Assembly (NCBI GenBank): GCA_934233745.1
Contig: CAKQGN010000001.1
Coordinates: forward strand, 194,621 to 258,620
DNA length: 64,000 nt
Direction: 5' to 3'
Source: an uncultured Clostridia bacterium
Lineage (GTDB): Bacteria; Bacillota; Clostridia; Christensenellales; CAG-917
The notes beneath the pieces are model-generated. The model saw nothing but the letters and a program-made list of their open reading frames with translations. It was not told the DNA's origin and made no database searches. Positions 1,460 through 28,920 of the stretch are shown here, piece by piece (within the stretch, counting starts at the first letter, position 1; the number at the start of each line of letters is the position of its first letter). Both the position numbers and the translations under genes were made by a program.

Positions 1460-1503
1460 ATATAAAATCAATGCGACGTGGGCGCATACACGGAGAGAAA
1501 AAC

Positions 1504-10500: not shown

Positions 10501-13500
10501 GTTGATGGTGTACAAGGCGCAACAACACCGTCATTCAAAGGGCACTTTGACGGAAACGGAAATACGATTGAGATTACATATACGAGCGGCGGATATCACC
10601 GTATCAGCGTGTTCCCGAATGCCGCAGGCGCAACGTTCAAGCACCTCACTATAAAAGGCACAATTCAAGCGGCAAGTCAAGCTGACGGAAAAGGGAATGA
10701 AGAGAATGATAAAAAAGATATTGTTTCCAAAACAGCCGCTTATGACATTGCAGGATTTGTGGGCAAACCGTTTGGAACACTCAAATTTTACAACTGCAAA
10801 AACGAAGCAGACATCATCGGTTTGAGAAATGTTGGCGGCATCGTTGGCTACAATGCAGGCGGACAATCGATAACGCTTGAAGCATGTGTCAACACAGGCG
10901 ACATTACATCTTTACAAGGGTCATACACTTTGGGTGGAAAAAACTCGGACACATATAACTACGATGATGGTTTGGATGGGACAGGAGTTGGTGAGACAAA
11001 CGTTGGATATACATTTGGCACTGGCGGTATTATAGGTTCTTACATTGGTAATATTCAAATTGAAAGTTGTCGTAATTCAGGCAAAATAATAGGCGGCCAT
11101 AATGTGGGTGGTATTATCGGTTTGCACAATGGCAAACAAGAAAGTTTTGCAACACTTACCATAAACAACTGTGCAAACACCGGCGATATACTCGCAAATT
11201 CAGGATACTGGGGTGAAGATCAAGGGGGAGCAAAAGATAATCCTTCTAGAGGCGTAAGGCAAAGCATATTCGGTTACGCAGGCGGACTTGTCGGAAAGAC
11301 GAGCAGATACTCTTCCCTCAAAATGTTTGCATCGTACAATATGGGTACTGTAATTACATATTCGAATATTGTCGGTGGGCTTGTTGGCGCAGTTGGAGCT
11401 TTGTCGAAAACAAGCAAAAACACAGGTACGGATACTTTGTTGACAGGTTCAAAATCTGTGATTGCATACTGTTATAACAACGGTACCGTTCATTCAGGCG
11501 GTACGTATCCAAAACAAGTTAAAGAAAGACTTTCTGGTCGTGAGAACTATGGCGGAACAATTTCCGGCGGTATCGCAGGTATTGTCGGCAATATCAAGAT
11601 TTCAAATTGCTACAATACGGGAGATATAATTGCTTGGGGCGTTGTAGGCTATAGTGGTTCTTGGCAACTGCGTTCAGGTGGCATAGTTGGTCAATCTGAG
11701 CCAACAGGCGACACATATGTTGTTGAGTTTGAGACTTTGTACAATGCCGGTTCGATTATGGCAAAAGCAAAAAACACTCACGTAGGTGTAGAGTGGATTG
11801 GTATTGCTTATTATATGAATGAAAAATTGAGATACGGTGGTGCCATTTCCGGTTATTGTGATCATTCGGAAATAACAAGCCGAATCACTTCATACAATGT
11901 GTACTCAATCAAATATCCTGTAGGAACGAAGATACTAAAAAAAGACATTAACTCCGCTAATAAGTATAAGGAAAGCGATTATGCAGAAACTGACTTTCAC
12001 GAACAAAGACGAGGAGATTATCTTGCAGACGGCGGCGTGGCAGGTATTGGGGCATCGCAAGAAGGTCTTACAGTTTCGGGTACGACGTTTGACTCGTATG
12101 AACAGCTTACAGCGCGTTTGAATGCACGTGATGATGTTGTGCCAAGAGCAACAGAGTATACTGGCAACAATAAAATTAATATAATACAATCCATTGAAAC
12201 ATTGACTGAGGGTATCGATTATACTCAACCTAAAATTGACGGCAAAATGTATGATGGTTGGATATATGTTTATGGTTGCTTGCCACAGCTTGCCATGTTT
12301 GCATTGGACACTCAAAACGGCTTGAGTATGCACTCGGTTGGTTATAGAAAAGATCAATACGGAGAATACAATGCAACAGGTGAGAGTGCAGGTTCTGATC
12401 AATATCCATACATCATTAAAGACGGCATCGATCTTATGGGTATGCAAGCACTTGTCGATAACGGATTTGATTTTAACGGAAAAATTATAGAGTTTGCGAA
12501 CAGCACCAACAATCTATCAGGGGTATGTTCTGAAACAATTGTTTTCCCAACAACATCTAGCACGTCAACCAACCTCAAAGACAGTAATGCGTATAAGGCA
12601 AAAGACAGCAAAGGAAACTACCATGAGGGCAAAAGTTACCACTTGTTTGCAAAAGGTGCATTATGCAATCAAGGTTGGTCTGATGACAAAGGCAACGTCA
12701 ACTCTGTTGCCCAAGAATATGGGACTTGGATAGAAAACAACTATAGGAATCTTGGCGAAAGTAAAAATACCACATTAAATTTGCAAAACTTCATTGCTAT
12801 CGGTAGAAAAGGCAATTCGTTCAAAGGAACAATCAACGGTCAACAGGGTACAGCGGAAGCTAGTTTTGCAACAATCATCGATTCGTTGCGTGTGACAATC
12901 AAAGGGTATAAAAACACTCACGCAGGACTTTTCTCAACTATAGAAAATGCCATTGTGCAATATGTTGGAGTCGGTGGTAATAGCCAAGTTTTTTCCCATG
13001 AAAAAGTTGGCACAACAGTAGTTGCCACGGCAGGTGGCATTGTCGGTATGGTATACGGCAACTCTGTTGTTGAAAACTGTATCGTGAAAGGTTCAACGGT
13101 AGTTGGTGCATATGGGTCTAATGCGTATGCAGGTGGAATTGCAGGCATGGCTGATCCCAAGCAAGGCAATACGTACAATGCAGGTATCACCACCACTATC
13201 CGCAATTGCTCCATTTCTTCAAGCGGCAGAATCGAATCCGCAAAGAGCAACATCGGCGGTGTTCTCGGTTATGTCGGTGGTGACGCAGGAGCAAACGAAA
13301 AAGGCAATAGCGTGCGTATCGAGGGGTGCGAGGTGCAAAAGGCGGCAATTCAAGCCGCAAGCAGCGCGACAGAAAGCAGTCATATCGGCGGTGTGCTGGG
13401 ATACGGCTCGGACTATGTGGCGGCATTCATCACCGGATGCTCGGTCGGCAACGGCGCAGATACTGTCACCATAAAGGGCGAGCATAGCCTTGGTGGCATC

Positions 13501-16500
13501 GCAGGCGGTATGTCCAATGCAAAAGGCGGTTATATCGACTCCTGCACGGTCGGAGCAAACACCACAATCGAACGAATAAATCAAGGCGGTGGCACAGTTT
13601 CTGAAAACCCCAAGCACGGCACTGCAATCGGCGGTCTTGTCGGTTTCACCGAGGACTCAACAGACACTACAAGCCCGCTCACCACGACGTTTAGCGGAAC
13701 ATCGGCTTTCAACGGCACGATAACCGTTTCGGTTGAGGCATCCTATCAATCATCAACATTGGACGCGAAGATAAGCTGTATCGGAGGTATCGTGGGCGAT
13801 ATGGGTTCGGGCGCAAACTTCGCGTCGGGATCGAATGTCACCGTGGACGGAACAATCAATATCACGCTTGCGGCTGCAAACGTCGGCGGCGTTGCGGGCC
13901 GTACAAACACTGCAACGTTTATCGGCAATTTTGTTGTCAAACCGAATATGCAAACCGATAAAGCCGAAAACGTCGGCGGTTTCATCGGCAAGAACGTTGG
14001 CACGGTGTACATACTTGCCGACACCACTGAGCGCATCGTGAACGACAAGCTCAACGGCACGGATATCACCATTGGCGGAACGATTCGAGGCACGAGCGAG
14101 GTGGGCGGCTTCATCGGCGTCAACAACTCGGGCAGCTCGCTCAATATCGGCTCAAACGTCGCAAACGCAAAGCCGTATAGATCGGGTACGCTGTCCATTA
14201 CAATTGAAAACGGGACGATCACCGGTGGCGATAATGTCGGCGGTATCGTCGGCAAAAACGAGGGTGCGGACGGCGGCGCAAGCTATGCGAGCATAGATAT
14301 CGTCAAAGGTACTATAACTCAACGAGGCACGATCCAAGGCGCAAACTATGTGGGAGGCATCATCGGACTCAACGACGGCTTGCTCACTACGGGCGGTGGC
14401 GAGGCGGATACGTCTATCGGCGGAACTACGCTTGATGAAAATCAAATCGGGCTTATCAAAAACCTCTCGATCACCAACAACGGCAACGTCACGGGTTCGG
14501 GCAACTATGTCGGCGGCGTGGTCGGCAAGCTCGATTCGCCTGCCGAAGATTCGGGCAAGGGTGCAATCGCAGGTACGTTTACAAACAGCGGCACGGTTGT
14601 GGGCAACAACTTTGTGGGCGGCTCGCTCGGTTTTGTCGGCAAAAACGTCACAATCACTGCAAAGAATAATGTTGCAACATTGTTTGTCAATGACGGCGAA
14701 GTCAATGCGACAGGCTACTTTGTGGGCGGTTCTATCGGCGCACTTGTCGGAAAGATTCTAGGCGAAAACTCGTCCGTTGCGGTCAAGTTTGAAAACAAAA
14801 AGAAAGTCAATGCGACAGGCTTTGTGGGCGGATCTATCGGCGTGCTGGCAGGTCCCGTTTCCTATGCGCAATTTGTCAATAGCTCGGACGGCCTCGAAAT
14901 CGCGGCGGTTAACTCGGTCGGCGGCTCGGTGGGTTACATCGGTGTGCCCTCGTTGCTTAGCTATGAGTTGATCGGCTTCACTGCGCATCAGATCGACATA
15001 AATAACACTCACTTCGAGGCTTCGGGAACTCTCAAGGCAAATCCGAGCCAAGACGCTATCAATGCGGCAAAGGAAGATAAAGAGGATAACGGTTGGGGCG
15101 GCGTCGGCGGCGCAATCGGAGTCATGGGCGCGGCTATCAATTCGTGGACAGACAACACATACTACGCCAACGGCAACGTCAGTGCAAACGTCATAGAAAA
15201 CGGTATAGAAACAGGCATATACAACGTCGGCGGCATCGTCGGACTTATCAATGCAGGCAACATCACGATAAGCAACATGCTCGCCTATCGCACAACAGTA
15301 ACCGGCGGTAAAAACGTCGGCGGCATCGTCGGTGCGACCACGGGCGCAAAAACCGTCATCAATTCCGCATACGCAATAGAAGGCACGTTCAGCGGCACTG
15401 AAAACGTGGGCGGCATCATCGGTCTTGCCAAAGACGATACCGACGCAAGCACTTCGTACTGGGTTAAAGGCTACGCAAACAGCGATATAGCCACGTATGA
15501 CGTAAAAGATTTGTCCAAACTCGGCTTCACAACCGGCAAAGCAACAACCGGCTGGTTCTTCCTGTATGCAAACGATGCAACCGGCGCAAACGGACTGGGA
15601 ACAATCAACACTTCACACTCCACAAATTCCGATTTGCAATACTGGAAACGCATTGCCGACGCATACACCGCAAGCGAGCGACAAACGAAAATAAAAGACG
15701 AAACCGGCGTAGAATATACATTAGCAACGATTCCGCTTAAATCGGATATCGTCAAGGACAAAGATATCAATGGCACAGATACCAAATCTCCGCAAAAATC
15801 CACGCTCTACGCAACCGCCACGGCGGCAGAAGTGACAGAAAAAGGCTATTATATGTATACAGCGACGTCGAATAACGATGTTAAGCCGTCTGTCATATAC
15901 GATAACGGAGTGTATTATATTAGCGTAAAAACAAACGTTATCAATGCGGAGGACGAAAAAGTCCAGGCGCAAAATGTTGCAGTGTTCTACCGTTCGGTTT
16001 CTTCAAGTAAAGAAGCATTGATCTACAATGGTTATTTGCGTAATGCCATTATTGGTTTGGACGGAGTTTACTTGTATGAAAACCCAATCGGCGACAATGA
16101 AACTCCGACAATTAATGGCTATAAAGGACAATACATATTTACCGCTACAACAACTATCAAAAACGCAGACGGTTCGACAAGCGAAGTGAACGAGGCTCAA
16201 TCGGATCCGAACACCTATTCTTCCGTCATTAAGATTTACTATGTCGACGACAACGGCACGGCACGTCTTGTCGGCGGCAATACCGAATTGGCATGGAAGA
16301 TCACCGAGAGAGAATTGGCGGTTGCATTTGAACATACTACGAATAGAACGTATGGAACAGGAACCGAAGACAACACGACCGATATGACGGTTACAATAGA
16401 CAACATTGCACCAAAAAGAGGTGTTACTGTCCCGATTAGAATAGTTGTTTCGTATGGGGCACAAGAGGATAGTCGTGTTATATTCACATGGGATGGTACA

Positions 16501-19500
16501 AAATTTAATGGCGCTGACGAAAATATAAAACTTACGTCGCTTCCAATGACGCAAAGCGGAACTTTGAGCGATAAGGATAAAGAATCGACAAGTGAAACCA
16601 TTGAAGATGAGGCCACATATCAACTTGTCGTAAAATTGTTTTTCAAACAAGCCAAATCGTATACGATTACCGTTTTGGATAGCTCACAAAAAGCTCGCTA
16701 CACATTCAAGAAAAACGGAGGAAGCGCGAGTGCTGAAGTCAGCGATGAATTTACTGTGCTTCCTGCCGAGTTGAGGCTGGTGAGTTCTTACGCTACATCC
16801 AGCGCATATGACGGAACGTACAAAGGCAAAGAATGGTTGGTAACAGGATTCAAGTATAATGATGGTGTTCTTCAATTTGCAGAGTTTTTACCTTCGTTTA
16901 ATATAAAATATAAAAACGGAGATGTGACAACAAAAGCAATGACTGCCGATAATATGACAACAGGAGTGGACTTTAACGGGCCAAGGGTTTCAGTTGCAGG
17001 ACCATCCAACGGAAATCTGACCATTTCACTTGTCAATGCCATCAACAAAGGTGAGTACTATCTTACTTTTGGGAAAATCGCAGCGGGCAACTATACGCTT
17101 AAAATCGAAGATTATTCATTTAGCATCGTAGAAATACAAATTGAAATTTCATGCGATGATAATGGAAAAAGCAAAATATATGACGGAAACGCCAAGGATG
17201 TAAAATTCACATTCAAAGCGAGCGCACCCGCCGGTGTTACGTTTGACGGTATAAGTGAGTATAAAACCTTTATCAGCAAGTTCTTTAAGATTAACAATCA
17301 AACTATTGAAACAAACAGTTTGAAACTTGTTGATAACAAAACAATCACATTGACATTGCAAACGGAGAAAGATGCAGCAACATATAAATTTGTTTTCGGA
17401 AAGGGTGAGAAATACGACGACCACATTAAAAACTGTGCTCTTAAACCAGCAACACTTCCGACATATACATACACTATAACCAAACGTTCGATCACATTGA
17501 GCACAACGCCGACGAGCACCAAAACTTACATTTACAACACCGAGCATCAAGGGTTGAGTCAAGTCAAATTGAATGGTGAGAGTGGCGATGTGGGCATTGT
17601 CTCAGGCGACACCGTCATGGTTAAGGTGAGCGTTCCGGGTGGGGATCCCTCGTCGAAGACTCTGTCGTTTGACAATCAAACGCTTGAGGTAACGGCAGGC
17701 ATTTCGACTATCGACGCAAACCAATATGTCGCATCTTTCGATTTGGATGACGCATCGAGCAAAAAGAACTACACGTTGAGTGCAACAAACGTGTCTTGGA
17801 AGATAGACAAATACAAAATAATGATTGGTGAGTTTGAGATTGGGGCTGAAAAAACATACAACGCACAAGCAGAAGTGCCAAAAATCAATGTCACCAACAG
17901 CGAAGTATCGGTTAGCGGAAACACGTTTACATATGGTACAGATACCTTTACTCTTGAGTATGCTGTTTCTTACAATAACCAAACCTATGCGAGCAACAAT
18001 CTTGTCAATGCAGGCACCTACAAGATTAAAATAGGCACCTCAAATGGAAAGATACATGCCAAGCATAGCGACGGGAATGATGCGTCAAACAACTATGAGT
18101 TTGGAAATAGCTCAACAGAACATCAATACGTGATCAATCCTTGCGAGATAAAAATCGGTTGGGAAAAGAAAACATTTGTGTATAATGCAAGTAATTGGAA
18201 ACTAAATGTTGCAAGTATCGAAATCAACAACAAGACCAAGACGGTTACAAACAATAGAGTTCAAACCGGTTTGGGCAACGATACTTTGACGTTCAGTCGT
18301 GGTGGCGGCGGAACAGACGTGGGAAGTTATACAACAAATGTAACGTCGCATAGTGTCAGTGTCAGTGTAGAACCAAACCACGGCGTAAGGCCTATTGCAG
18401 GCAACTATAAGATTGTATCTGGTGCCACAAGCGACAAGTTTTCCATCACGCCGTCCAAACTGAAGATTTTCTATGCAGGCGGTACGACAAGCAAAGTTTA
18501 TGATGCGGGATTTGGTATATCAGGCAAGCCGTTCGTGTTTAATACTCAATCCCAAAATGGCGGCGCACACGGCACTTCGGAGTTGTTTGATATTAGCTAT
18601 GTGTACAAAGACAAAAATGTCGGCAACGACAAGGAAGTTGTGTTTACCTATGTGTTGAAGAACGGAAATGCGAACTACGAATACGTTGGTACGGGAACGG
18701 AAAGTCAAAACAAAGGACAAATCACGCCGGCACATATCAAGGTTGCGCTCGACAAGTTGCGTAGTGGAAAAGCGACAAGGACGTTTACCAACGAACCTTA
18801 TTATGGTGGAAAAGACGGCGCAAGCGGCGGCAAAAACGACGGCAAAAGCACAGTGTATCGTTCGGGTGAAGGTTTCCGCATAAGCGGCGTGTTCGGCAAC
18901 GACGACATCAAAGTTGTTGCAAAATACGCCGAGGCAGGCGACGATAGAGTGATGTTTGACAAATATGTCAACGACATTGTGAAAAATACAGACGAAACGT
19001 TTGCCAAGGCGGCGGCAGGCACGCATTTGAAGATGCTTGTGTTTGAAATGACGGGTGGTGACGCAACAAACTACACGTTCAACGTATACGATACATCTGA
19101 CAAAGCATACAGCAAAAACAATGGCGATAGCCAAACGCCGGTGAATGTTTATGACAAGGATGATGAGAAAAACAACAAAGATAAACTGTCCCAAATCAAA
19201 ATCGAAATCACCGTCAAAACGTACAAAGTTGAGTATAAAAACGCCGCTCAAAGTTATGCCAATGCAGACAATACTTACAACACAAATTGGGAAAGAGTTG
19301 GAGTATCCAACAACCCGCCAGGAGTTACAGTAACCGTTTCCAACGGCTGGATGTATGCCGACGGACAAGACCATGGTGATGATGAACAAGCCGAAAAGAA
19401 AGTCTACAAAGCGTACACAACCATTAGAGGCTCGCAAAACAGTGTCTTGTTGGGTGCAAAGATAAGCGGTATCGATGGAATGGAACTCAACTATAAGATG

Positions 19501-21093
19501 GTCAATCAGCCCATTCTTACCATCGGATACTTTGTCGTAGACAACAACGACGTGTTTGAAATCGGTTCGGCATCGAGTTTAATGATTGCATCCTACTATT
19601 GGTGGGTTGCGCAAAACGGTCAAAACCCCGACTTCAACCTGCCGCTCGTTGCAACTTCAACATGGCATAAGATTGTCAGCAACGATGATTATATGACAAA
19701 ACCGTTTGAGAAACCGAGCGATGCACCCAACGATGTTGATATGACGGGTTGGGATTGGGATATGTATTTTGCTTGGTTTGAACAACAATATAATGTCAAG
19801 ATTTTCCTCAATGAAACAGGAATTTCAAACGAGGACGGCACGTGGGGCTATTATACAACCGGCGAAGAATCGCAACAAACACAATATAAAAAGTATAGAA
19901 TGGTGCGTGATTTCAGCGGCAAATTGTCAGAGTCCGATATTGCCATACTTGAGGCGTTCTTCCCGAAAGAAAAAGGGTGGGGCGTTGGAAAAACGTATCT
20001 TGACAACTTCCTCAATACTTCAGTCGGAAGTGTGTTGACGGCAGTCGGAAGTGTGTTTAGATGGTATAATGGTAGTGTAGGACAGTTTGAGTTTGACGGC
20101 AACGGATATGTCATAGAGTATCTCAACATTATGGGCTACGACAAAGAGAATGTCGGCTTGTTTGACATCATCGGCGCAAACGGAAGTGTCAAAAATCTGC
20201 ATTTGAGAAATATCACAATCAATGCAAATCAAGGCAACGTCGGCGGTATTGCCGGAAGTATTGCCGCGGCTGAGGGTGAGGGCGATGCAACAAATGTCAC
20301 CAACGTGTCCTTCCACGGCAAGATTACCGCAACGGGCGGCACGGTCGGCGGCTTGTTCGGCACAAGCGCAAGAGCAATCAACGGCGCAATCGTCCTTGGC
20401 GAGATAAGCGCAAGCGGCGCAAACGTCGGTGGCGTTGTCGGCACTGCAAAAGCAGACTTAACCAAAGTTGTGTCAATGATGCAAATCACCGCAAGCGGCG
20501 GCACGGTTGGAGCGTTTACAAGCACTCAAAACCCAACAATCTCAGATTCTTTCCATATGCATAATGCAGTGTGGAAGAGCGGCACGGGCTTCGTAAACGT
20601 TGAAGGCAAAAACGTCGGCTACAATGATTTGATGAGCGGTTCAAACTCGCTTTATGCAAACGCCGCCTCCGATTCAGGCACATACGACGTTATCAACGAA
20701 ACGTTTGCCGACAGCGGTCAAAACGTCAATCCGCGCCAAAGCAAACGCTTGAGAGATATGGTTTCCGTGTATCTATTGATGTATTCTTTGAAAGTCAATG
20801 GCGACAAGTACACCATAAGCGCGTCAAGTTGGCTTGTCGGTTCGGCGGATGGCACAGACGCGAAACCGATTGCGATTGCCAACAAACAAAACGTATCGCT
20901 TTTGCGCGAGCTACGCTTTGCGGCGTTTGTGCTAAAAGCCAACGTGAGCATTGACATTGCAAGCACGTTTGGCGGCTCGTTCTATGGCAGCGTGACAAGT
21001 GAGAACGGCAAAGACTATAAGATAACTTGCAACAAGCAGATGTTCGAGGTATACGCAACCACACCTCCGGCGTGGCTTGAAGTAAAACCTTAA
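1504..21093 (+). CDS. Giant (about 6,529 aa) N-terminally anchored surface protein with GLUG-motif beta-helix repeats alternating with MBG/Ig-like repeats
   Basis: One uninterrupted ORF (track 1471..21093). The ATG at 1504 has a GGAGAG RBS. The N-terminus has a basic stretch plus one hydrophobic helix (LTAGALLLAITFVLVFAGTLSGAFG). Dozens of G-G-[ILV]-[VA]-G units occur about every 20-30 aa (VGGIVG, VGGLVG, AGGIAG), matching the GLUG motif and a parallel beta-helix. Six modules each open with a G-x-x-x-P-[YF]-x-I type segment at about nt 2326, 4486, 7396, 10186, 12388 and 19552. Between them, especially 15450-19540, are 90-110-aa repeats with junctions of the form (A/G)NY..I.P..I.I...K.Y(D/N)(G/A), which are MBG-like. 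No LPXTG, SLH or other C-terminal anchor is visible. Confidence 0.9.
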   Translation: MRNSRTKTQTKLRNYIKLTAGALLLAITFVLVFAGTLSGAFGIENELQQNGIIENNVASATGTTKTVTYNASDTTFTATPNKKWKNDLTKQSIVTSYPSKHQQKWKKLFEDFVGDTTYDGCHGYYDRDTYTENATVALNKTEITQFLSSGIGESDDLYYTVSATATIKMGAWQDGSATITQKVSAWVSDNATHNSNTQGELFSHQQSKKEEAWKHILSLESNIFKTKPTTSTLYFGVHYEHKNNASGTAFGANTYDFMLVESFEITITKYSGYSGGDGTPASPYILAKRADFDDLSVNVASGSTYSGKYFIVQPDTTIEGQNATTIAMGDTYFTPIGNSTTKFAGTLLGNGCTINGLVTSGQHSGLFGYVNNARIDSLTVNVSNDSDSTSVGGLVGVVNGTTTITNCNVTGSVKGTHQIGGFVGFAQDCVLTISNGTNSATITTTSQSSNDKGRTSGGGIVGYVNANATVTINDVTNTGEVKTTSGNANSGLGGIVGFANGGTNINNCHNTASITGRAGLGGIVGYTANGSIVGCRNDGNITSSKPYNLGAGEASYSGGIAGYCYADVAKCYNSGTVKTTSDWGNSNIVGGIAAYLGSGRNVKYCYNGGWIEGSDYVGGIVGRRDGTVSYSYQAGKIKGLYNKTSTIGHITGNDTSSKISTCWTLPGASNLTTVTNTFNHNGYTVSSEANVAMKPAFGNAVLESWEEITDTGATSDTFSEITGIDQFVFYPNNNEHKIENNQYLFVYATDANAVALVPNHIDSGVSVITDTTTASVAKTVPFVSRFYFNASSDKNLVASISPIDAPLTSTQTVYNGSGQKVTTDVVGADVQEKSYYFTSGNDNALAKNKVIDAGEYDIVTEVTMKVGENTYVVVGRQVHETKWTIKTRPISFWNKIYYYGETPTSAPVPQSMSGDKGLLNGHTFICTHADELTYDFMYGAIPNAQKEVTINMTGEIRDAAGNDVTYNYDFQNGTFTISMREGNFGVKGTTDIVNNPWGSQGNPFVIKTAQHLVNLSKIVNGETPTNADTSQIVNSIFDNTTYTHVVSNNTIRYQNCYFVIVNDLDMNGSGFAPIGKDATYFFEGNISGVKSIEDTLQQNRFISNLTVNLASTDNVGLFGYVLKKGTEKPYIKHIVLNNSCSFVGKSNVGSIVGWAQDAVIQNCINNATVEGKGENAGGIVGKNFGTETSNCENHGTVKGVKNVGGIAGTLDWGVISNVQNSATVEASGENCGGIVGYMISYSTLKNVTNNAQVNGGNKTGGALGYYEKKATYSVQPIYGLTNNNSVEGLSNVGGIIGCVAGDLVFDGNNESQKCTMSGGSVKGTFNVGGLVGGVEDGSTVTLTNFTNNAKVIGGYVVGGLVGLLRGSIKNSVNNADITSEYNKAGTPSGLSIGAYVGGLVGVAYGAISHCYNSGNISASGDNSDFLGGIVGYTNANVAYCTSLENSIISGSNQVGGIVGKASGNNVKIEYCYFGGKINGLWNDNRAKLDFICGEIIDGLVSNSWKLPNAQNGDTGNRTYTNAGNALTIATGMTFKPYFVQEGSEHDTEWEQIVSKNIVGFSVSGNVPTNSYFNSDNGNDTAYVKPDKTNGFAANSTSGNVTAWYGADFGSDVRCSIVEIQVDTTPDEYNGEKQGLTREDVYMPSANNGVYEVQFAYKGNKYGDVIPEDVDMYNTTVTVKIDEKVVGVRTGVQYEITKKKVTITNIWTWKYVNGSNADFYKFEYNKDIQGMLSITVDGVLENSHYTLTQTENKAAVGKYSSSVVISDRDYEVEIVSKYCTIQNNNANLETDNAKYGIKTTQTNANTSNSQTTYTYNWEIVPFDLAADFNKNNVWFGGTKNLIVGNQGIANVEGDTTKSFYPLQVGKKGTGVQQVLVYAQHNYAASSFVVYVKYNNGNVFPLTRDTEYTVGTLENNVFGTFNVNVVSQAKPVEDTNVTARGTGNFSGDITKYYTAMFSDFGGNVTGANWGSAGNPYVISKPEHLLRLSQIVNGGTAWNSIITTNNALCISPQGTAVATDRAYSGAYFLVTADIDMTGNISTDGVYNFLPIGHRNEQSQTDMPFSGTFDGNGKKIKFVYNVNRNNFYNNNKAHSDYVGLFGYIAGYKVDAEQKYATIKNLSIESMDGNEVDDNGGIIGKDYVGGIAGYAVDSKLYNVSMMYGSWVRGENYVGGIVGYGENTWLEVGNEHDNAITYANVGGIQYVGGIVGKWIVSSEEQIGGGKDKQEYITTTLGTDVNGTQYVGGLVGWLDTSTCTDSVVFAPIVKGSDQNKNVVKGTEYVGALFGVVVGNGYHQSATQGKYTAIVISDQKVNNITLQTNTSAKVVGGLVGYAESVGILFETDWNTSSTTFTLDDSTSFFGGVVGVLGKNSTIEAIIVTKEGDGSYLTGSEHTILNNTALGASGKPIGSFVGGIVGYVSSQAGTYWEANTTIFGNGISLVNSGQIHATGYAGGIFGALGDLSTSVAQTFENDTNSILYNVLTKGVRSGNANTTLGIAPTVDSAYFIGAKGKLVNSASLSVTDGYVGGIAGYSGAKVRFVLRNTPQTGAIATANLNVYSGGNDIYINGSYAGGIAGYLSFGLDHELQYVVVQAKFASQDATRVGGLVGYMGSGKVERCVVTSPDGTISANTDNYQGTEYVGGLVGETQSAIIRNSVSTGFNLEQTSNTKGGLLGYGANPTIDSSWTFYIAKSGATYSTVSKNTYGKYILVDTDIVTTDIVTTDKSSYPTFAKLCEFTGIAKNGTAGMLEFAINVPTQRQLAFYNASGSDVETSNKDSFKGFENRNNVLTIKLDMASGTSMQICVVDIEFVNVPQHGTDNDEAAHAVVESTYKKPSNSTRYHVDVTQANFDIANTKQVTHIKANIYFDYDGDGHYISIGDGNVEPNNRIGGEYDSEEIIPGSSAENPLTISSQEEWNDFAWSIYTGANDYAGQYVKLLASKIVINTGENKNGKHKGTKFNYDYDFTSVSTPNKSQEDTKNANSNMGYNLAGNISQGSSEVEKVTVDGVQGATTPSFKGHFDGNGNTIEITYTSGGYHRISVFPNAAGATFKHLTIKGTIQAASQADGKGNEENDKKDIVSKTAAYDIAGFVGKPFGTLKFYNCKNEADIIGLRNVGGIVGYNAGGQSITLEACVNTGDITSLQGSYTLGGKNSDTYNYDDGLDGTGVGETNVGYTFGTGGIIGSYIGNIQIESCRNSGKIIGGHNVGGIIGLHNGKQESFATLTINNCANTGDILANSGYWGEDQGGAKDNPSRGVRQSIFGYAGGLVGKTSRYSSLKMFASYNMGTVITYSNIVGGLVGAVGALSKTSKNTGTDTLLTGSKSVIAYCYNNGTVHSGGTYPKQVKERLSGRENYGGTISGGIAGIVGNIKISNCYNTGDIIAWGVVGYSGSWQLRSGGIVGQSEPTGDTYVVEFETLYNAGSIMAKAKNTHVGVEWIGIAYYMNEKLRYGGAISGYCDHSEITSRITSYNVYSIKYPVGTKILKKDINSANKYKESDYAETDFHEQRRGDYLADGGVAGIGASQEGLTVSGTTFDSYEQLTARLNARDDVVPRATEYTGNNKINIIQSIETLTEGIDYTQPKIDGKMYDGWIYVYGCLPQLAMFALDTQNGLSMHSVGYRKDQYGEYNATGESAGSDQYPYIIKDGIDLMGMQALVDNGFDFNGKIIEFANSTNNLSGVCSETIVFPTTSSTSTNLKDSNAYKAKDSKGNYHEGKSYHLFAKGALCNQGWSDDKGNVNSVAQEYGTWIENNYRNLGESKNTTLNLQNFIAIGRKGNSFKGTINGQQGTAEASFATIIDSLRVTIKGYKNTHAGLFSTIENAIVQYVGVGGNSQVFSHEKVGTTVVATAGGIVGMVYGNSVVENCIVKGSTVVGAYGSNAYAGGIAGMADPKQGNTYNAGITTTIRNCSISSSGRIESAKSNIGGVLGYVGGDAGANEKGNSVRIEGCEVQKAAIQAASSATESSHIGGVLGYGSDYVAAFITGCSVGNGADTVTIKGEHSLGGIAGGMSNAKGGYIDSCTVGANTTIERINQGGGTVSENPKHGTAIGGLVGFTEDSTDTTSPLTTTFSGTSAFNGTITVSVEASYQSSTLDAKISCIGGIVGDMGSGANFASGSNVTVDGTINITLAAANVGGVAGRTNTATFIGNFVVKPNMQTDKAENVGGFIGKNVGTVYILADTTERIVNDKLNGTDITIGGTIRGTSEVGGFIGVNNSGSSLNIGSNVANAKPYRSGTLSITIENGTITGGDNVGGIVGKNEGADGGASYASIDIVKGTITQRGTIQGANYVGGIIGLNDGLLTTGGGEADTSIGGTTLDENQIGLIKNLSITNNGNVTGSGNYVGGVVGKLDSPAEDSGKGAIAGTFTNSGTVVGNNFVGGSLGFVGKNVTITAKNNVATLFVNDGEVNATGYFVGGSIGALVGKILGENSSVAVKFENKKKVNATGFVGGSIGVLAGPVSYAQFVNSSDGLEIAAVNSVGGSVGYIGVPSLLSYELIGFTAHQIDINNTHFEASGTLKANPSQDAINAAKEDKEDNGWGGVGGAIGVMGAAINSWTDNTYYANGNVSANVIENGIETGIYNVGGIVGLINAGNITISNMLAYRTTVTGGKNVGGIVGATTGAKTVINSAYAIEGTFSGTENVGGIIGLAKDDTDASTSYWVKGYANSDIATYDVKDLSKLGFTTGKATTGWFFLYANDATGANGLGTINTSHSTNSDLQYWKRIADAYTASERQTKIKDETGVEYTLATIPLKSDIVKDKDINGTDTKSPQKSTLYATATAAEVTEKGYYMYTATSNNDVKPSVIYDNGVYYISVKTNVINAEDEKVQAQNVAVFYRSVSSSKEALIYNGYLRNAIIGLDGVYLYENPIGDNETPTINGYKGQYIFTATTTIKNADGSTSEVNEAQSDPNTYSSVIKIYYVDDNGTARLVGGNTELAWKITERELAVAFEHTTNRTYGTGTEDNTTDMTVTIDNIAPKRGVTVPIRIVVSYGAQEDSRVIFTWDGTKFNGADENIKLTSLPMTQSGTLSDKDKESTSETIEDEATYQLVVKLFFKQAKSYTITVLDSSQKARYTFKKNGGSASAEVSDEFTVLPAELRLVSSYATSSAYDGTYKGKEWLVTGFKYNDGVLQFAEFLPSFNIKYKNGDVTTKAMTADNMTTGVDFNGPRVSVAGPSNGNLTISLVNAINKGEYYLTFGKIAAGNYTLKIEDYSFSIVEIQIEISCDDNGKSKIYDGNAKDVKFTFKASAPAGVTFDGISEYKTFISKFFKINNQTIETNSLKLVDNKTITLTLQTEKDAATYKFVFGKGEKYDDHIKNCALKPATLPTYTYTITKRSITLSTTPTSTKTYIYNTEHQGLSQVKLNGESGDVGIVSGDTVMVKVSVPGGDPSSKTLSFDNQTLEVTAGISTIDANQYVASFDLDDASSKKNYTLSATNVSWKIDKYKIMIGEFEIGAEKTYNAQAEVPKINVTNSEVSVSGNTFTYGTDTFTLEYAVSYNNQTYASNNLVNAGTYKIKIGTSNGKIHAKHSDGNDASNNYEFGNSSTEHQYVINPCEIKIGWEKKTFVYNASNWKLNVASIEINNKTKTVTNNRVQTGLGNDTLTFSRGGGGTDVGSYTTNVTSHSVSVSVEPNHGVRPIAGNYKIVSGATSDKFSITPSKLKIFYAGGTTSKVYDAGFGISGKPFVFNTQSQNGGAHGTSELFDISYVYKDKNVGNDKEVVFTYVLKNGNANYEYVGTGTESQNKGQITPAHIKVALDKLRSGKATRTFTNEPYYGGKDGASGGKNDGKSTVYRSGEGFRISGVFGNDDIKVVAKYAEAGDDRVMFDKYVNDIVKNTDETFAKAAAGTHLKMLVFEMTGGDATNYTFNVYDTSDKAYSKNNGDSQTPVNVYDKDDEKNNKDKLSQIKIEITVKTYKVEYKNAAQSYANADNTYNTNWERVGVSNNPPGVTVTVSNGWMYADGQDHGDDEQAEKKVYKAYTTIRGSQNSVLLGAKISGIDGMELNYKMVNQPILTIGYFVVDNNDVFEIGSASSLMIASYYWWVAQNGQNPDFNLPLVATSTWHKIVSNDDYMTKPFEKPSDAPNDVDMTGWDWDMYFAWFEQQYNVKIFLNETGISNEDGTWGYYTTGEESQQTQYKKYRMVRDFSGKLSESDIAILEAFFPKEKGWGVGKTYLDNFLNTSVGSVLTAVGSVFRWYNGSVGQFEFDGNGYVIEYLNIMGYDKENVGLFDIIGANGSVKNLHLRNITINANQGNVGGIAGSIAAAEGEGDATNVTNVSFHGKITATGGTVGGLFGTSARAINGAIVLGEISASGANVGGVVGTAKADLTKVVSMMQITASGGTVGAFTSTQNPTISDSFHMHNAVWKSGTGFVNVEGKNVGYNDLMSGSNSLYANAASDSGTYDVINETFADSGQNVNPRQSKRLRDMVSVYLLMYSLKVNGDKYTISASSWLVGSADGTDAKPIAIANKQNVSLLRELRFAAFVLKANVSIDIASTFGGSFYGSVTSENGKDYKITCNKQMFEVYATTPPAWLEVKP
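9628..9660 (+). repeat. In-frame 15-bp perfect tandem duplication (GACATTGTAACCACC x2.2) inside the giant gene
   Basis: gacattgtaaccacc gacattgtaaccacc gac encodes DIVTT-DIVTT-D. Confidence 0.95.
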
Positions 21094-24192: not shown

Positions 24193-24268
24193 TGGAGCTG
24201 ATGACCAGACTTGAACTGGTGACCTCATCCTTACCAAGGATGTGCTCTACCACCTGAGCCACATCAGC
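24193..24268 (-). tRNA. tRNA-Thr (anticodon GGT)
   Basis: The reverse complement GCTGATGTGGCTCAGGTGGTAGAGCACATCCTTGGTAAGGATGAGGTCACCAGTTCAAGTCTGGTCATCAGCTCCA folds as a cloverleaf. The acceptor is GCTGATG/CATCAGC, the anticodon loop is TTGGTAA, the T-loop is TTCAAGT, and CCA is encoded. Confidence 0.92.
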
Positions 24269-24275
24269 ATATTGT

Positions 24276-24364
24276 TGGCGGAAGCGGAGGGATTCGAACC
24301 CCCGTGGGCTTGCACCCAAACGGTTTTCAAGACCGCCTCGTTATGACCGCTTCGATACGCTTCC
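24276..24364 (-). tRNA. tRNA-Ser (anticodon TGA), class II with a long variable arm
   Basis: The reverse complement is GGAAGCGTATCGAAGCGGTCATAACGAGGCGGTCTTGAAAACCGTTTGGGTGCAAGCCCACGGGGGTTCGAATCCCTCCGCTTCCGCCA. The acceptor is GGAAGCG/CGCTTCC, the anticodon loop is CTTGAAA, the variable arm is 17 nt, and the T-loop is TTCGAAT. Confidence 0.92.
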
Positions 24365-26035: not shown

Positions 26036-26875
26036 ATGAATAATACAATAAATAGCGAGTTGGCGATTGTATATAGAGAATGGCTCGAAGCGTCAAAACG
26101 CCCGAACGGAATCTTTTGCGATAAAAGCGGCATCGAGAAGTATTCAAATCCGTATTTTTTCGGTGTTCCGAACGAATGGAACATTGAGAAAGACGGTGTA
26201 AGAATACTGGTTGTCGGACAAGAGGGCGCAAGCGGACATTGGAACGCAATCGATATGAATAGTGATAAATATATTGCTTTCGACGATGTGGAAAAGCTGC
26301 AGGAAGCGTCCATCGCGACTGTTGAGAAACGTGTTGGCGGCAAAGACGCAAGCATCGATATTTGCGGCGAAAAGCATCTTATAAAAGACAATCATCGTGC
26401 GTTTTGGCAGTTTTTCAATCGCATAGCAACAAATGACAAAGCGGTGGAAGCATGTCCTTGCGCATGGACAAATATCGACCTTGTTTGTTACAACCAAAAA
26501 GCCGCAAACCGCAAGTATAAACTTAACGAAACCGATAGAAAAATTTTGCACGCCGATACAATTCCCGCAATTTTCAAAAGGCTGGCGGACATAGCAAAAC
26601 CCACGCATATAGTGTTTGCTTCTTGGCGCGACATTTCGTTCGATCACGAGTTCGAGTCGAAACCGTCTGGTTTTTTTAACGATTCTTTTAAGAGAAACGG
26701 TGTAAATTCCGTTTTGCTCACTCATTTGTCGAATATACCGTGTCTTGTTTTGTATCATCCGCAGTATTTGAAAATAAAGAAATCTTTTGATGACGTAATC
26801 AAAACCATATGCGACTACATATATGACGAAAAGAAAGATGAAAATCTAATAGAAACGAGTTTCAAGCTCGGCTGA
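26036..26875 (+). CDS. Hypothetical protein, possibly uracil-DNA-glycosylase-superfamily fold with an atypical motif A
   Basis: Four segments follow the order of UDG-family landmarks. ILVVGQEGASG corresponds to VGEAPG, CAWTNIDLV to YITNVVK, KPTHIVFASW to P.vIv.LG, and LVLYHPQYL to HPS/HPA motif B. This rests on motif recall only. Confidence 0.35.
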   Translation: MNNTINSELAIVYREWLEASKRPNGIFCDKSGIEKYSNPYFFGVPNEWNIEKDGVRILVVGQEGASGHWNAIDMNSDKYIAFDDVEKLQEASIATVEKRVGGKDASIDICGEKHLIKDNHRAFWQFFNRIATNDKAVEACPCAWTNIDLVCYNQKAANRKYKLNETDRKILHADTIPAIFKRLADIAKPTHIVFASWRDISFDHEFESKPSGFFNDSFKRNGVNSVLLTHLSNIPCLVLYHPQYLKIKKSFDDVIKTICDYIYDEKKDENLIETSFKLG

Positions 26876-26894: not shown

Positions 26895-26927
26895 GCGATG
26901 TACCACAAACGGTGCATCGCTTTTTTT
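26895..26927 (+). terminator. Rho-independent terminator after 26036..26875
   Basis: Stem-loop GCGATGTACC-ACAAAC-GGTGCATCGC followed by TTTTTTT. Confidence 0.7.
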
Positions 26928-26963
26928 ATATTATAAGCGAAAAAACACAGGAGGTGAGCTTTT

Positions 26964-27476
26964 ATGGGAAAAAGCAGCAGTAATAGTATGAAGGAATTGT
27001 GTATCGAGATATCTGAGAATTCGGTTGGCTTGGAAGTCGAATACGACAGCCTAAAAAAAGCATATGACGAGGAACTCCCGATTGTATATGAAAGAGGGTT
27101 GGCGGAAGAATTTTTGCTTGCTCAAAAGGTGGCGGATGTTATAAGGAATATTTGTCCGTTTCTCGAGTTTATCGGTCTTGCAGCAAGCAGTATGGTCGCA
27201 TATTTGCTCTATATAACCGACATAAATCCCGACAAGTACAAATTGAATTTCAAAGACGTTATAGATGCGCCCTGCAACGGGTATATGTGGGGATATCATT
27301 TTAGCAAAGAAAATTTGTATGAAGTTTTCAAAGAGTTGAAAAAACATTTTCAACATGTCGAGTTGAGTGCAAACGACGATTGTTTGACGGTGAACGGTCT
27401 TAAAATATTTGTTGAAACGTCTTTTGAAAGAATCCGCACCATCGGTTTGTGTACGGAACATTGTTTACCGTTTTAA
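26964..27476 (+). CDS. Small protein resembling a catalytically dead fragment of the DNA polymerase III alpha (DnaE) palm domain
   Basis: The RBS is AGGAGGTG. The segment AEEFLLAQKVADVIRNICPFLEFIGLAASSMVAYLLYITDINPDKYKLNFKDVIDAPCNGYMWGYHFSKENLYEVFKELKKHF aligns by eye with the DnaE segment GYFLIV....[46 protein letters not shown]....R..VI.YV...YG. The catalytic PD[IF]D[TV]DF aspartates are replaced by GYMWGYHF. Confidence 0.5.
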   Translation: MGKSSSNSMKELCIEISENSVGLEVEYDSLKKAYDEELPIVYERGLAEEFLLAQKVADVIRNICPFLEFIGLAASSMVAYLLYITDINPDKYKLNFKDVIDAPCNGYMWGYHFSKENLYEVFKELKKHFQHVELSANDDCLTVNGLKIFVETSFERIRTIGLCTEHCLPF

Positions 27477-27491
27477 AGGAGAGTAAATGAT

Positions 27492-28856
27492 ATGGATGCA
27501 TTTGATAAAATTGCAGGTTACGAGAAACAAAAGAAAAATTTGCGCTATATAAGCGATATGTGGAAAAACCCCGAAGAATACAAGCGTCTCGGCGTCAGAA
27601 TTCCCAAAGGAGTGATGTTGGACGGCGACCCGGGAAACGGAAAAACGCTTATGGCTCAATGCCTCATCGAAGCAACCGAATGTGCGTATGAAAAATGCAC
27701 GAAAGACAGGGCGCAGGATGAATTCATCGTCCATTTGAAAGAGGTGTTTAAGAGGGCGGAAGATTATGTGAAAAGCAACAACAAACCGTTTATAATCTTT
27801 TTGGACGATATGGATAAATTTGCCGAAACGTCAAAAGATACTGACAATCCCGAAGAATATGCGATCCTTCAAACGTTTATAGATTCAATCAAGGATTTTG
27901 ACGTGTTTTTTGTCGCTACCGTAAACAGTTGCGCTGCTTTTCCAAAGTCGCTTATCAGAAGCGGAAGAATTGACAAAACATTTGTTATTCTCAAACCGTC
28001 AATATCGGATTCCGAAAAAGTCGCGGATTACTATTTGCAAAATCAAAACGTCAATATAAAAGGCGTGTCGGGTCGCTATATCACACAAATGACGGAAGGC
28101 GTTTCATGTGCAGAACTCGAATCGATTATCAATGAGGCAGGTATGTATGCCGCTTTCGAACGAAGCGATTGCATAACGAAGAAACACATCGATTGGGCGA
28201 TTATGTGCATCAAATTCAAGATAAATGTTGCGGGAAAATTGGAACGAACGTATGATAAAAACAATCCGAATTGCCGCGAGTTTGCGTATCACGAAGCAGG
28301 GCACGCAGCGGTTGCGCTGTTGAGCGAAAACTTTATTCCGACAATTCTGTTCACCGATGATTTAAAGAAAAACTGTTCGTTTTGCTATTCGCATAATAAA
28401 AACAAGGGGTCTCAATACAACAATTCAATCGAAAGAGTGTTTATCGATTTCGGCGGGAAAGCGGGGGCGAGTATAGGGTTTGGTCCGCTGACATTGGGGT
28501 GCAATCTGGATTTGCGTGAGGCGTGGAAAAATTTGTATTGGAATGTTTCGAAAGACTGCGTCGAAGACTTGCATATGTTCAATCCGATCGACAATCGAGA
28601 TTCCTTGCAAGGTGAATTGTTTAAAGACAGATTGGACACAACGACCGAAAAAATGAGCAACGCTTACAATTTCGTCGTGGAGTTGTTGAATCTAAACAGA
28701 GCCTTGTTAGACGCGCTTGCCGACCGTCTTATGGAAAAGTATTTTATAACCGTCGACGAGATTTCCGAAATCTTTGAGGAATATAAAAGCAATCATAAAG
28801 TCGTTACGATTCGCGATTTGATGGCAACTCGTTCGCAAACGCTTGCCTCGGCATAA
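27492..28856 (+). CDS. Soluble (no TM) FtsH-like AAA+ ATPase fused to an M41-type zinc metalloprotease domain
   Basis: The RBS is AAAGGAGAG. Walker A is GDPGNGKT. Walker B is IIFLDDMD, with DD in place of DE. The second region of homology is ATVNSCAAFPKSLIRSGRIDK. The zinc site is AYHEAGHAAV (HEXXH), with GCNLDLREA corresponding to FtsH GASNDI. No N-terminal TM helices are present, unlike canonical FtsH. Confidence 0.75.
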   Translation: MDAFDKIAGYEKQKKNLRYISDMWKNPEEYKRLGVRIPKGVMLDGDPGNGKTLMAQCLIEATECAYEKCTKDRAQDEFIVHLKEVFKRAEDYVKSNNKPFIIFLDDMDKFAETSKDTDNPEEYAILQTFIDSIKDFDVFFVATVNSCAAFPKSLIRSGRIDKTFVILKPSISDSEKVADYYLQNQNVNIKGVSGRYITQMTEGVSCAELESIINEAGMYAAFERSDCITKKHIDWAIMCIKFKINVAGKLERTYDKNNPNCREFAYHEAGHAAVALLSENFIPTILFTDDLKKNCSFCYSHNKNKGSQYNNSIERVFIDFGGKAGASIGFGPLTLGCNLDLREAWKNLYWNVSKDCVEDLHMFNPIDNRDSLQGELFKDRLDTTTEKMSNAYNFVVELLNLNRALLDALADRLMEKYFITVDEISEIFEEYKSNHKVVTIRDLMATRSQTLASA

Positions 28857-28884
28857 ATTCAGAGAAAAATTGCAGAAAAAGAGG

Positions 28885-28920
28885 ATAAAGCAGGCGTTTT
28901 GCCTGCTTTATCTGTTTGTT
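28885..28920. terminator. Bidirectional terminator between convergent genes
   Basis: An 11-bp stem, ATAAAGCAGGC-GTTTT-GCCTGCTTTAT, is flanked by an A-rich left side and a T-rich right side. Confidence 0.65.

Follow-up and report, generated by a model that had tools for sequence, protein, structure and literature searches.

A two-gene operon lies within the 64,000-nt stretch of contig CAKQGN010000001.1, from an uncultured Clostridia bacterium, that was analysed here and is called the window. Gene 1 encodes a protein of 170 amino acids (aa) that is, by profile, predicted structure and alignment, a catalytically dead derivative of the DnaE palm. Gene 2 encodes a 454-aa FtsH-type AAA+ zinc metalloprotease that is predicted to be soluble. 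Members of both families are found beside genes for WYL regulators. Features of the locus are listed below, with coordinates given as positions in the window; L- and P-numbers denote the loci and proteins compared in the analysis.

26964..27476, + strand: gene 1, 170 aa, truncated catalytically dead DnaE-palm protein of the mini-DnaE family (PF07733, AlphaFold2 (AF2), Foldseek, dN/dS, family alignments A2 and A4)
26950..26955, + strand: ribosome-binding site (RBS) of gene 1, AGGAGG, read from the sequence, 8 nt upstream of the ATG
27285..27302, + strand: gene 1 residues 108-113, MWGYHF, the strand that bears the catalytic DxD in real DnaE (alignment, AF2)
27438..27473, + strand: disordered C-terminal tail of gene 1, ...CLPF, a candidate docking motif or degron (model confidence, conservation)
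27492..28856, + strand: gene 2, 454 aa, soluble FtsH-type AAA+ zinc metalloprotease (Pfam, TIGR01241, FtsH structures)
27477..27483, + strand: RBS of gene 2, AGGAGAG, in the intergenic gap, read from the sequence, its AGGAG 10 nt upstream of the ATG
27624..27647, + strand: gene 2 Walker A, GDPGNGKT, residues 45-52; G45, P47, G48, G50 and K51 invariant in the family
27723..27728, + strand: gene 2 remnant of the pore-1 loop, F78-I79 (HMMER alignment to FtsH); F78 invariant in the family
27792..27809, + strand: gene 2 Walker B, IIFLDD (DD, not DE), family-invariant residues
27957..27968, + strand: gene 2 second region of homology (SRH), R156-S-G-R159, aligned to FtsH 'llrpgrfd'; R156, G158 and R159 invariant
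28290..28304, + strand: gene 2 zinc-binding HEAGH, residues 267-271, invariant in the family and aligned to FtsH 'ayheaghavv'
28509..28511, + strand: gene 2 D340, third zinc ligand, invariant and aligned to the D of FtsH 'gaanDiera'
27326..28825: recombination tract of recent exchange, covering the 3' end of gene 1 and the whole of gene 2 (nucleotide identity to L004)
26036..26875, + strand: g0, 279 aa, no assigned family, syntenic with the gene 1-gene 2 pair
26895..26920, + strand: terminator-like hairpin and T-run in the interval between g0 and gene 1, with a 10-pair stem (6 GC pairs) followed by TTTTTTTATA
28883..28913, both strands: bidirectional terminator hairpin, common to gene 2 and the convergent GH3 gene

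An earlier sequence-only reading of this DNA had placed both open reading frames (ORFs) exactly. It was also right that gene 2 has its own RBS and that terminators flank the operon on both sides; the spacing of 16 nt that it gave is in fact a gap of 15 nt.

Gene 1 and the mini-DnaE family

Residues 26-98 of gene 1 match the Pfam family PF07733 (DNA_pol3_alpha; profile positions 19-92 of 260, E 7.5e-7) scoring 29.5 bits where the gathering cut-off is 23.9, and several NCBIfam DnaE models match residues 3-98, which correspond to about residues 290-390 of DnaE. The Pfam scan returned no match to PF02811, PF17657 or PF14579; the PHP, thumb, fingers and beta-binding/OB domains are missing. The AF2 model built from a 26-sequence family alignment has a predicted local distance difference test (pLDDT) score of 84.5 and a predicted TM-score (pTM) of 0.82. 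In a Foldseek comparison of this model with the PDB, the best 15 matches are all Pol III alpha (Thermus, M. tuberculosis, E. coli), with probabilities of 0.94-1.00 and TM-scores on the query of 0.45-0.58; PolC and Pol-beta-type nucleotidyltransferases come next. The first AF2 model, made from 7 close orthologs only, reached a pLDDT of 54 and yielded no meaningful Foldseek match. When gene 1 was compared with PDB sequences by phmmer and by profile, nothing significant emerged (DnaE at E 0.2-0.7), and the PI3K SH2 matches that ranked above DnaE there were judged spurious.

The active site is gone. The 'GYPDIDSD' of the true DnaE P0136 aligns to 'GY-MWGYHF' in gene 1, so that W and Y stand in place of the DxD pair; none of the catalytic triad (D401, D403 and D555 in E. 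coli) is present, and the part of the palm that carries the third aspartate is missing. AF2 places a beta strand at residues 110-112, and M108, W109, G110, Y111 and H112 are invariant among the orthologs. Both the kinship with the DnaE palm and the loss of all catalytic aspartates had been read by eye, and both hold. Gene 1 resembles DnaE and PolC in its N-terminal palm part, its GxxxSxVAYxLxIT helix-hairpin and its beta-alpha-beta unit. It differs from them in having 170 aa instead of more than 1000 and no catalytic aspartates, and it cannot polymerise.

Gene 1 is a real gene under purifying selection and not a pseudogene, since the ratio of nonsynonymous to synonymous substitution rates (dN/dS) is 0.23-0.27 with dS reaching about 1.1, all lineages keep the length of 170 aa, and its best-conserved half, the C-terminal one, lies outside the Pfam match. 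Residues 158-170 are modelled with pLDDT below 50, and P169 and F170 are invariant in the orthologs. The C-terminal conservation, together with the divergence of the ortholog in L015, a locus without gene 2, was at one point read as relaxed selection after gene 2 loss. We dropped this reading because hitch-hiking on the gene 2 recombination tract accounts at least in part for the conservation seen in L004.

Relatives of gene 1 are few. When 1.84 billion representatives were searched exhaustively with phmmer, only 15 matches at E ≤ 1e-3 came up, and orthologs were found in 3 of about 185,000 species genomes only. The relatives beyond the orthologs are 259-450 aa long and align over gene 1 residues ~35-157 (P0131-P0135 and P0140, phmmer E 3e-6 to 8e-4). 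One further match, to the 1705-aa, repetitive and eukaryote-like P0129 (E 1.7e-10), was judged spurious because only query residues 48-68, a short stretch of low complexity with 9 repeats, are involved. The group defined here by alignments A2 and A4, which we call the mini-DnaE family, comprises ~20 clusters in a family search, with a typical length of 275-280 aa. All relatives have FGWF/FGFY-type residues in place of the DxD, an aromatic or hydrophobic replacement that is also seen in gene 1. Their C-terminal part is a remnant of the finger domain, EDYMHxxHY...G.SY.EA..IR (PF17657 positions ~108-164). Gene 1, the shortest member, lacks this remnant and ends at family position ~160; its ...LPF tail is resembled by [LFM]PF or EMPF motifs near the C-termini of the full-length members. 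P0131 and P0132 carry an N-terminal RNase T-like exonuclease. An ORF downstream of the gene 2 homolog in L070, considered as a fusion of the same kind, has the DnaQ-like domain only.

A regulator with helix-turn-helix (HTH), WYL and WCX domains adjoins the full-length mini-DnaE gene in every context that was read (L017, L019-L023 and plasmid pCY186). A gene for a Cas4-like DUF2779 protein is usual at these loci, and some also carry serine recombinases, a rolling-circle Rep or a type I restriction-modification (R-M) system. One mini-DnaE/WYL locus sits in the same genome as L015. Neither the plasmids of PLSDB nor the phages of INPHARED yielded a mini-DnaE of the c3 type. Matches of the mini-DnaE profile on viral contigs proved to be ordinary full-length phage DnaE of 550-1500 aa, and true members of the gene 2 family occur on 4 viral contigs only; these viral-contig scans do not support a phage origin.

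Two side observations concern this family. About 4.7 kb downstream of the c3-type mini-DnaE, WYL and DUF2779 genes lies a gene for a 660-aa ATPase with AAA and AAA_lid_6 domains (SpoVK/CbbX-like; L019:12623-14605, also in L020 and L021), a different AAA+ protein in a position comparable to that of the FtsH-like protease. P0137 (510 aa) and P0138 (500 aa) are truncated DnaE-like proteins with palm and fingers and a degenerate DxD ('SIQFDFE' and 'FIFNLP'); dead or reduced derivatives of C-family polymerases may be more diverse than the mini-DnaE family.

Gene 2, a soluble FtsH-type protein

Gene 2 has the Pfam domains AAA, AAA_lid_3 and Peptidase_M41, the last (PF01434) with 33 bits against a gathering cut-off of 29.9. 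It matches the FtsH model TIGR01241 at E 1.9e-40 over model positions 161-597 of 598, with a score of 139.3 bits against an equivalog cut-off of 600. Residues 4-430 match the FtsH structures 2ce7 and 8vw9 (E ~1e-29), and the protein aligns to residues 15-458 of the T. maritima FtsH cytosolic construct. The nearest known proteins are the AAA+ M41 zinc metalloproteases FtsH, Yme1 and AFG3L2. The AAA+, lid and M41 regions of gene 2 align over their full length with solved cytosolic regions of FtsH, and the HEXXH-plus-Asp zinc site, the sensor-1 residue and the SRH arginines of FtsH are kept. Unlike FtsH, gene 2 has no transmembrane helices and no periplasmic domain. No transmembrane segment was found (maximum Kyte-Doolittle(19) value 1.25), and the N-terminus begins 3 residues before the AAA module. 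The Walker B motif reads DD, and the pore-1 loop is 4 residues shorter than in FtsH. The sequence-only reading had anticipated the intact Walker A, arginine-finger region and HEAGH site, the missing N-terminal helices and the DD in Walker B.

In 20 family members at 33-36% identity, D105, D106, D108, K109 and F110 (DDxDKF) are invariant, as are Walker A, the sensor-1 N, R156 and R159, HEAGH and D340. The DD is therefore a trait of the family and not a sign of decay. The pore-1 loop had first been noted as absent; in the alignment of FtsH 'elFVgvgaarvrdlf' with gene 2 'deFI....vhlkevf', the GVGA is deleted and F78-I79 line up with the aromatic-hydrophobic pair F-V of FtsH. From these motifs, gene 2 is probably an active protease.

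A word-indexed search with gene 2 gave 5,967 matches at E ≤ 1e-10, ordinary FtsH-type proteins included; the relatives listed are 420-440 aa long, have no transmembrane segment and come from gut and rumen Firmicutes. By these searches the gene 2 family appears to be a large Clostridia family with hundreds to thousands of relatives. It is unlike FtsH also in its setting, which is accessory or mobile DNA beside WYL genes and not a housekeeping context. YjoB of B. subtilis is another soluble FtsH-like AAA protein.

Shared neighbourhoods and local exchange

The sample of distant loci of the gene 2 family comprises 81, of which 78 come from a metagenome scan and 3 had been found earlier. In 36 of the 81, a WYL regulator is found no more than 3 kb from the gene 2 homolog; among the 25 that have at least 3 kb on both flanks, 14 have one at this distance. 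In 23 loci it immediately adjoins the homolog, often with overlapping stop and start codons. Altogether, 49 WYL ORFs were counted in 0.68 Mb of gene 2 family loci versus none in 1.70 Mb of controls. The association is scattered over the whole neighbour-joining tree of gene 2, and in a Pfam census of immediate neighbours WYL/WCX is the sole dominant partner, the rest being mobile-element cargo. Genes for DUF2779 (15 loci), a Metallophos phosphoesterase, a DnaQ-like exonuclease and serine recombinases also turn up repeatedly as neighbours; coupling proteins of type IV secretion systems (T4SS) are also found near these loci. In L046 and L064 the gene 2 homolog is embedded in co-oriented arrays of at least 15 genes, among them Metallophos, DnaQ-like exonuclease, WYL and ADP-ribosylglycohydrolase genes. 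The conserved clusters c6, c42, c43, c76-c79 and c81 of these arrays have no Pfam match, and the array looks like a conserved uncharacterised segment of a mobile element.

Genes for dead DnaE recur beside the protease. In the neighbour-joining tree, DnaE-associated gene 2 homologs fall into four clades with only 28-38% identity between them. In three of these, namely the window clade, L028 and pCY186, the dead-DnaE gene directly adjoins the protease gene. In L028, the gene 2 homolog and a PF07733 ORF overlap at the stop codon of the former. On pCY186, a complete plasmid of Butyrivibrio proteoclasticus B316, the homolog BPR_RS19030 is bracketed by two dead-DnaE genes, both without the DxD: one encodes 480 aa (palm and fingers) and stands 120 nt from the protease gene, the other 332 aa (palm only) at 28 nt. 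The trio is clustered with a WYL gene, Rep, dnaX, a DnaA/Hda-family gene, PolC and dnaB. The chance of dead DnaE and protease co-occurring by accident is negligible because mini-DnaE is very rare.

Upstream of the pair, g0 has no match in Pfam, NCBIfam, PHROG or PADLOC. Its motifs VVGQEGASGHW and YHPQYL look by eye like those of the uracil-DNA glycosylase superfamily, a resemblance at the level of motifs. A profile of g0 orthologs matches L065:2574-3293 (E 2.3e-7) and L045:5612-6361 (E 6.6e-4), and these homologs, which have GQE/GQQ, FWxFF, WNN[IV]D and YHPxY motifs in common with g0, lie between gene 2 homologs and WYL genes. Since all three families are found beside WYL genes, gene 1, gene 2 and g0 stem from one WYL-WCX-centred gene pool on plasmids and integrative elements.

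Relatives assign the window to an uncultured gut lineage that is Clostridiales / Christensenella-like. The block GDPD-g0-gene 1-gene 2-GH3 is syntenic in these relatives, and its parts have moved separately. Between the window and L004, gene 2 and the 3' end of gene 1 are 91-99% identical in nucleotide sequence and the flanks 65-85%; dS is 0.042 in gene 2 versus 1.1-2.8 in the flanks. Alleles of g0 have moved from lineage to lineage without their flanks: in g0, L001 and L004 share 96-100% identity, versus ~75% elsewhere. In L015 (Christensenella sp. UBA7571) the terminator hairpin that is found downstream of gene 2 directly follows gene 1. Gene 2 is thus laterally exchanged and polymorphic in presence and absence; in the window clade it was never observed without gene 1.

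Proposed role, alternatives and remaining features of the window

We put at about an even chance the reading in which the gene 1-gene 2 operon, together with g0, is a reduced and regulator-less chromosomal remnant of an undescribed WYL-WCX-centred module, with gene 1 as the specificity partner of the protease. Plasmids and integrative elements in Clostridia of gut and rumen would have carried the ancestral module, with the WYL regulator presumably controlling its expression. The WYL domains of PafBC, DriD, BrxR and CapW respond to single-stranded DNA or infection signals. Gene 2 would act as a cytosolic, ATP-driven zinc metalloprotease whose substrates are chosen through partner proteins, because the membrane anchor and periplasmic domain that position FtsH are absent. 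The most likely such partner would be gene 1. As a bait, or as a substrate with a degron, it could gate the protease through its own state; alternatively, it could be an adaptor that recruits a protein which normally binds the palm of DnaE or PolC. In the end, a target linked to replication would be degraded. We infer that the two proteins interact physically, with gene 1 as adaptor or as substrate, and that such a target exists. In the lineage of the window the WYL regulator would have been lost, leaving the operon between its own terminators. The role would be anti-phage defence, control of mobile-element replication, or a DNA-damage response or damage tolerance. In a more specific and unlikely version, the pair would be the smallest form of a surveillance system borne by mobile elements: phage or plasmid proteins that take over or block DnaE/PolC would engage dead-palm decoys, which would switch the protease on or off, and WYL proteins sensing aberrant DNA would control the full module. 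If true, this would be guard/decoy immunity at the replisome, for which there is no characterised precedent.

Several observations weigh against the proposed remnant and partnership. A search of the 64-kb window for WYL genes gave zero matches, and no mobile-element hallmarks, replication genes or mobility genes were found immediately around the pair in the window. DnaE-palm ORFs, confirmed by Pfam, occur within the fetched flanks of only 6 of the 81 distant gene 2 loci, and most members of the gene 2 family have no DnaE-like neighbour; in the fourth clade (L034, L035, L078, L098 and L102) the DnaE-like gene is 1.4-9 kb from the gene 2 homolog and not adjacent. The c3-type mini-DnaE contexts have WYL and DUF2779 and no FtsH-like gene within 7 kb, so the link between DnaE and protease could be indirect, through shared islands, and the recurrence could likewise reflect such islands rather than a direct partnership. 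L015 has an intact gene 1 and no gene 2 or remnant of it. The DD in Walker B and the shortened pore loop also count here, since gene 2 may, but need not, be a processive unfoldase. PADLOC assigned no defence system to the locus beyond a weak IetA-like similarity of the AAA region. Conserved adjacency is found in part: the genes are adjacent in three clades and neighbours in four, and most of the gene 2 family stands apart. The idea of a self-contained and universally conserved two-gene system did not survive the dominance of WYL-WCX as partner, the c3 loci and L015.

Some of these facts favour a looser history in which gene 1 and gene 2 are independent and merely travel together in WYL-regulated islands, each acting on its own with or under the WYL regulator and their adjacency being a product of island shuffling. 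WYL is the dominant neighbour of both families and direct DnaE-protease adjacency the minority case, some mini-DnaE loci do without the protease, L015 keeps gene 1 alone, and in recombination gene 2, g0 and the 3' end of gene 1 behave as distinct cassettes. We nevertheless find this rather doubtful, since the coupling is tight in three separate clades and in both gene orders (15 nt, an overlapping stop codon, 28 nt), two dead-DnaE paralogs bracket the protease on pCY186, and every gene 2 seen in the window clade is accompanied by gene 1. That plasmid, with its trio inside a cluster of Rep, dnaX, DnaA/Hda-family, PolC and dnaB genes, speaks instead for an accessory of mobile-element replication or maintenance, in which protease and dead DnaE would remodel or degrade initiator or replisome components and the pair in the window would be a domesticated leftover. 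ClpX, ClpA and FtsH remodel or degrade proteins of Mu, P1 and lambda, and DnaQ-like exonucleases and ORFs resembling the N-terminus of DnaA/Hda recur in gene 2 family loci, with serine recombinases and T4SS coupling proteins nearby. An explicit replication cluster is seen at one locus only, though; the window has no replication or mobility genes nearby and yet both genes are under purifying selection; and defence islands would account just as well for the association with genes for Cas4-like DUF2779, R-M, GmrSD and KAP NTPase. On balance this accessory role seems unlikely to us.

An arrangement similar to toxin and antidote, with a free protease that would be harmful and gene 1 as an inhibitor or sacrificial substrate until a trigger removes or saturates it, would suit the one-sided loss in the window clade, where gene 1 occurs without gene 2 (L015) and never the reverse. 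Gene 1 is first in the operon and closely spaced, and its C-terminal tail, which is hydrophobic and disordered, is of the type that FtsH-type proteases recognise. We consider it quite unlikely all the same: most members of the gene 2 family have no DnaE-like gene at all, and the gene order is reversed in L028 and for one copy on pCY186. Finally, gene 1 covers ~15% of DnaE, has none of the catalytic residues and is restricted to those 3 species genomes, as might be expected of a decaying fragment of a duplicated dnaE. Against this stand its dN/dS and fixed length, the invariant C-terminal half, a strong RBS, a confident predicted fold and a whole family of similarly dead proteins with conserved architecture. 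Decay is highly improbable and the sole rival that is clearly disfavoured.

As to the proposed module, its parts can be compared with several known systems. ImuB, which belongs to the ImuA-ImuB-DnaE2 mutasome, is a catalytically dead Y-family polymerase that serves as a scaffold. Like gene 1, it is a non-enzymatic partner derived from a dead polymerase, in an accessory, often mobile and stress-regulated cassette. There is no homology between the two: gene 1 is of the C-family and not the Y-family, and its partner is a protease and not an active polymerase. A clamp-binding motif was not recognised in gene 1. The mycobacterial ImuA-ImuB-DnaE2 cassette is described as being partly under the WYL regulator PafBC (PMC8682763). 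Gene 2 homologs and full-length mini-DnaE resemble WYL-regulated modules (PafBC and its Pup-proteasome locus, BrxR-BREX, CapW-CBASS) in that they typically adjoin an HTH-WYL-WCX gene, often with translational coupling; the window differs in having no WYL gene. In Actinobacteria, PafBC is reported to be encoded beside an AAA+ proteolysis system (PMC8223512). IetAS, an anti-phage pair made of the AAA+ protein IetA and the protease IetS, likewise combines ATPase and protease activity, and the weak similarity of gene 2 to IetA (E 8e-11 in PADLOC, 6e-8 in NCBIfam) is its sole defence match in these two collections. Gene 2 scores 32 bits against NF042959, where the cut-off is 510, no IetS subtilase gene is adjacent, and its protease is of the M41 type and fused to the ATPase.

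A literature search found no WYL-controlled system matching the set of soluble FtsH-like protease, dead DnaE, DUF2779, Metallophos and g0-like genes, and no description of the mini-DnaE family, of the soluble FtsH-like family as a WYL partner, or of the pairing; the last agrees with the sequence-only reading, which knew of no characterised precedent. Both domains and WYL-regulated accessory modules are already known, and it is the mini-DnaE family, the link between WYL and the protease, and the pairing that are apparently undescribed. To our knowledge, dead scaffold polymerases and membrane-free FtsH-type proteases have each barely been studied in bacteria. Here three dark-matter families (mini-DnaE, soluble AAA+ M41 and g0-like proteins) are linked in one recurring mobile neighbourhood of abundant gut and rumen Clostridia, which also holds WYL regulators, a Cas4-like DUF2779 nuclease and a phosphoesterase. 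If polymerase mimics do direct the protease, this would be a new coupling of regulated proteolysis to the replisome, and would suggest a function for many proteins annotated as 'AAA family ATPase' or 'hypothetical protein'. The operon in the window is the smallest natural version, with two genes and no regulator, and is therefore a convenient experimental entry point.

A few features of the surroundings remain. The convergent gene 3' of gene 2 encodes a GH3 beta-glucosidase. The tRNA genes noted near the operon in the sequence-only reading are those for tRNA-Thr and tRNA-Ser at 24193-24364, 2.6 kb upstream of it. In L001 the same position, upstream of the GDPD gene, is taken by an insertion of an HTH gene, a gene for a 229-aa protein and a phage-type integrase (L001:341-2693), suggesting that a hotspot of tRNA-associated integration borders the block. 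Further upstream, on the + strand at 1471-21093, the window contains a single very long ORF (6540 aa) whose product is probably a huge protein of the surface or adhesin-like type; its last 2030 residues have no Pfam match, and GLUG motifs (PF07581, E 1e-23) are found in its first 2000.

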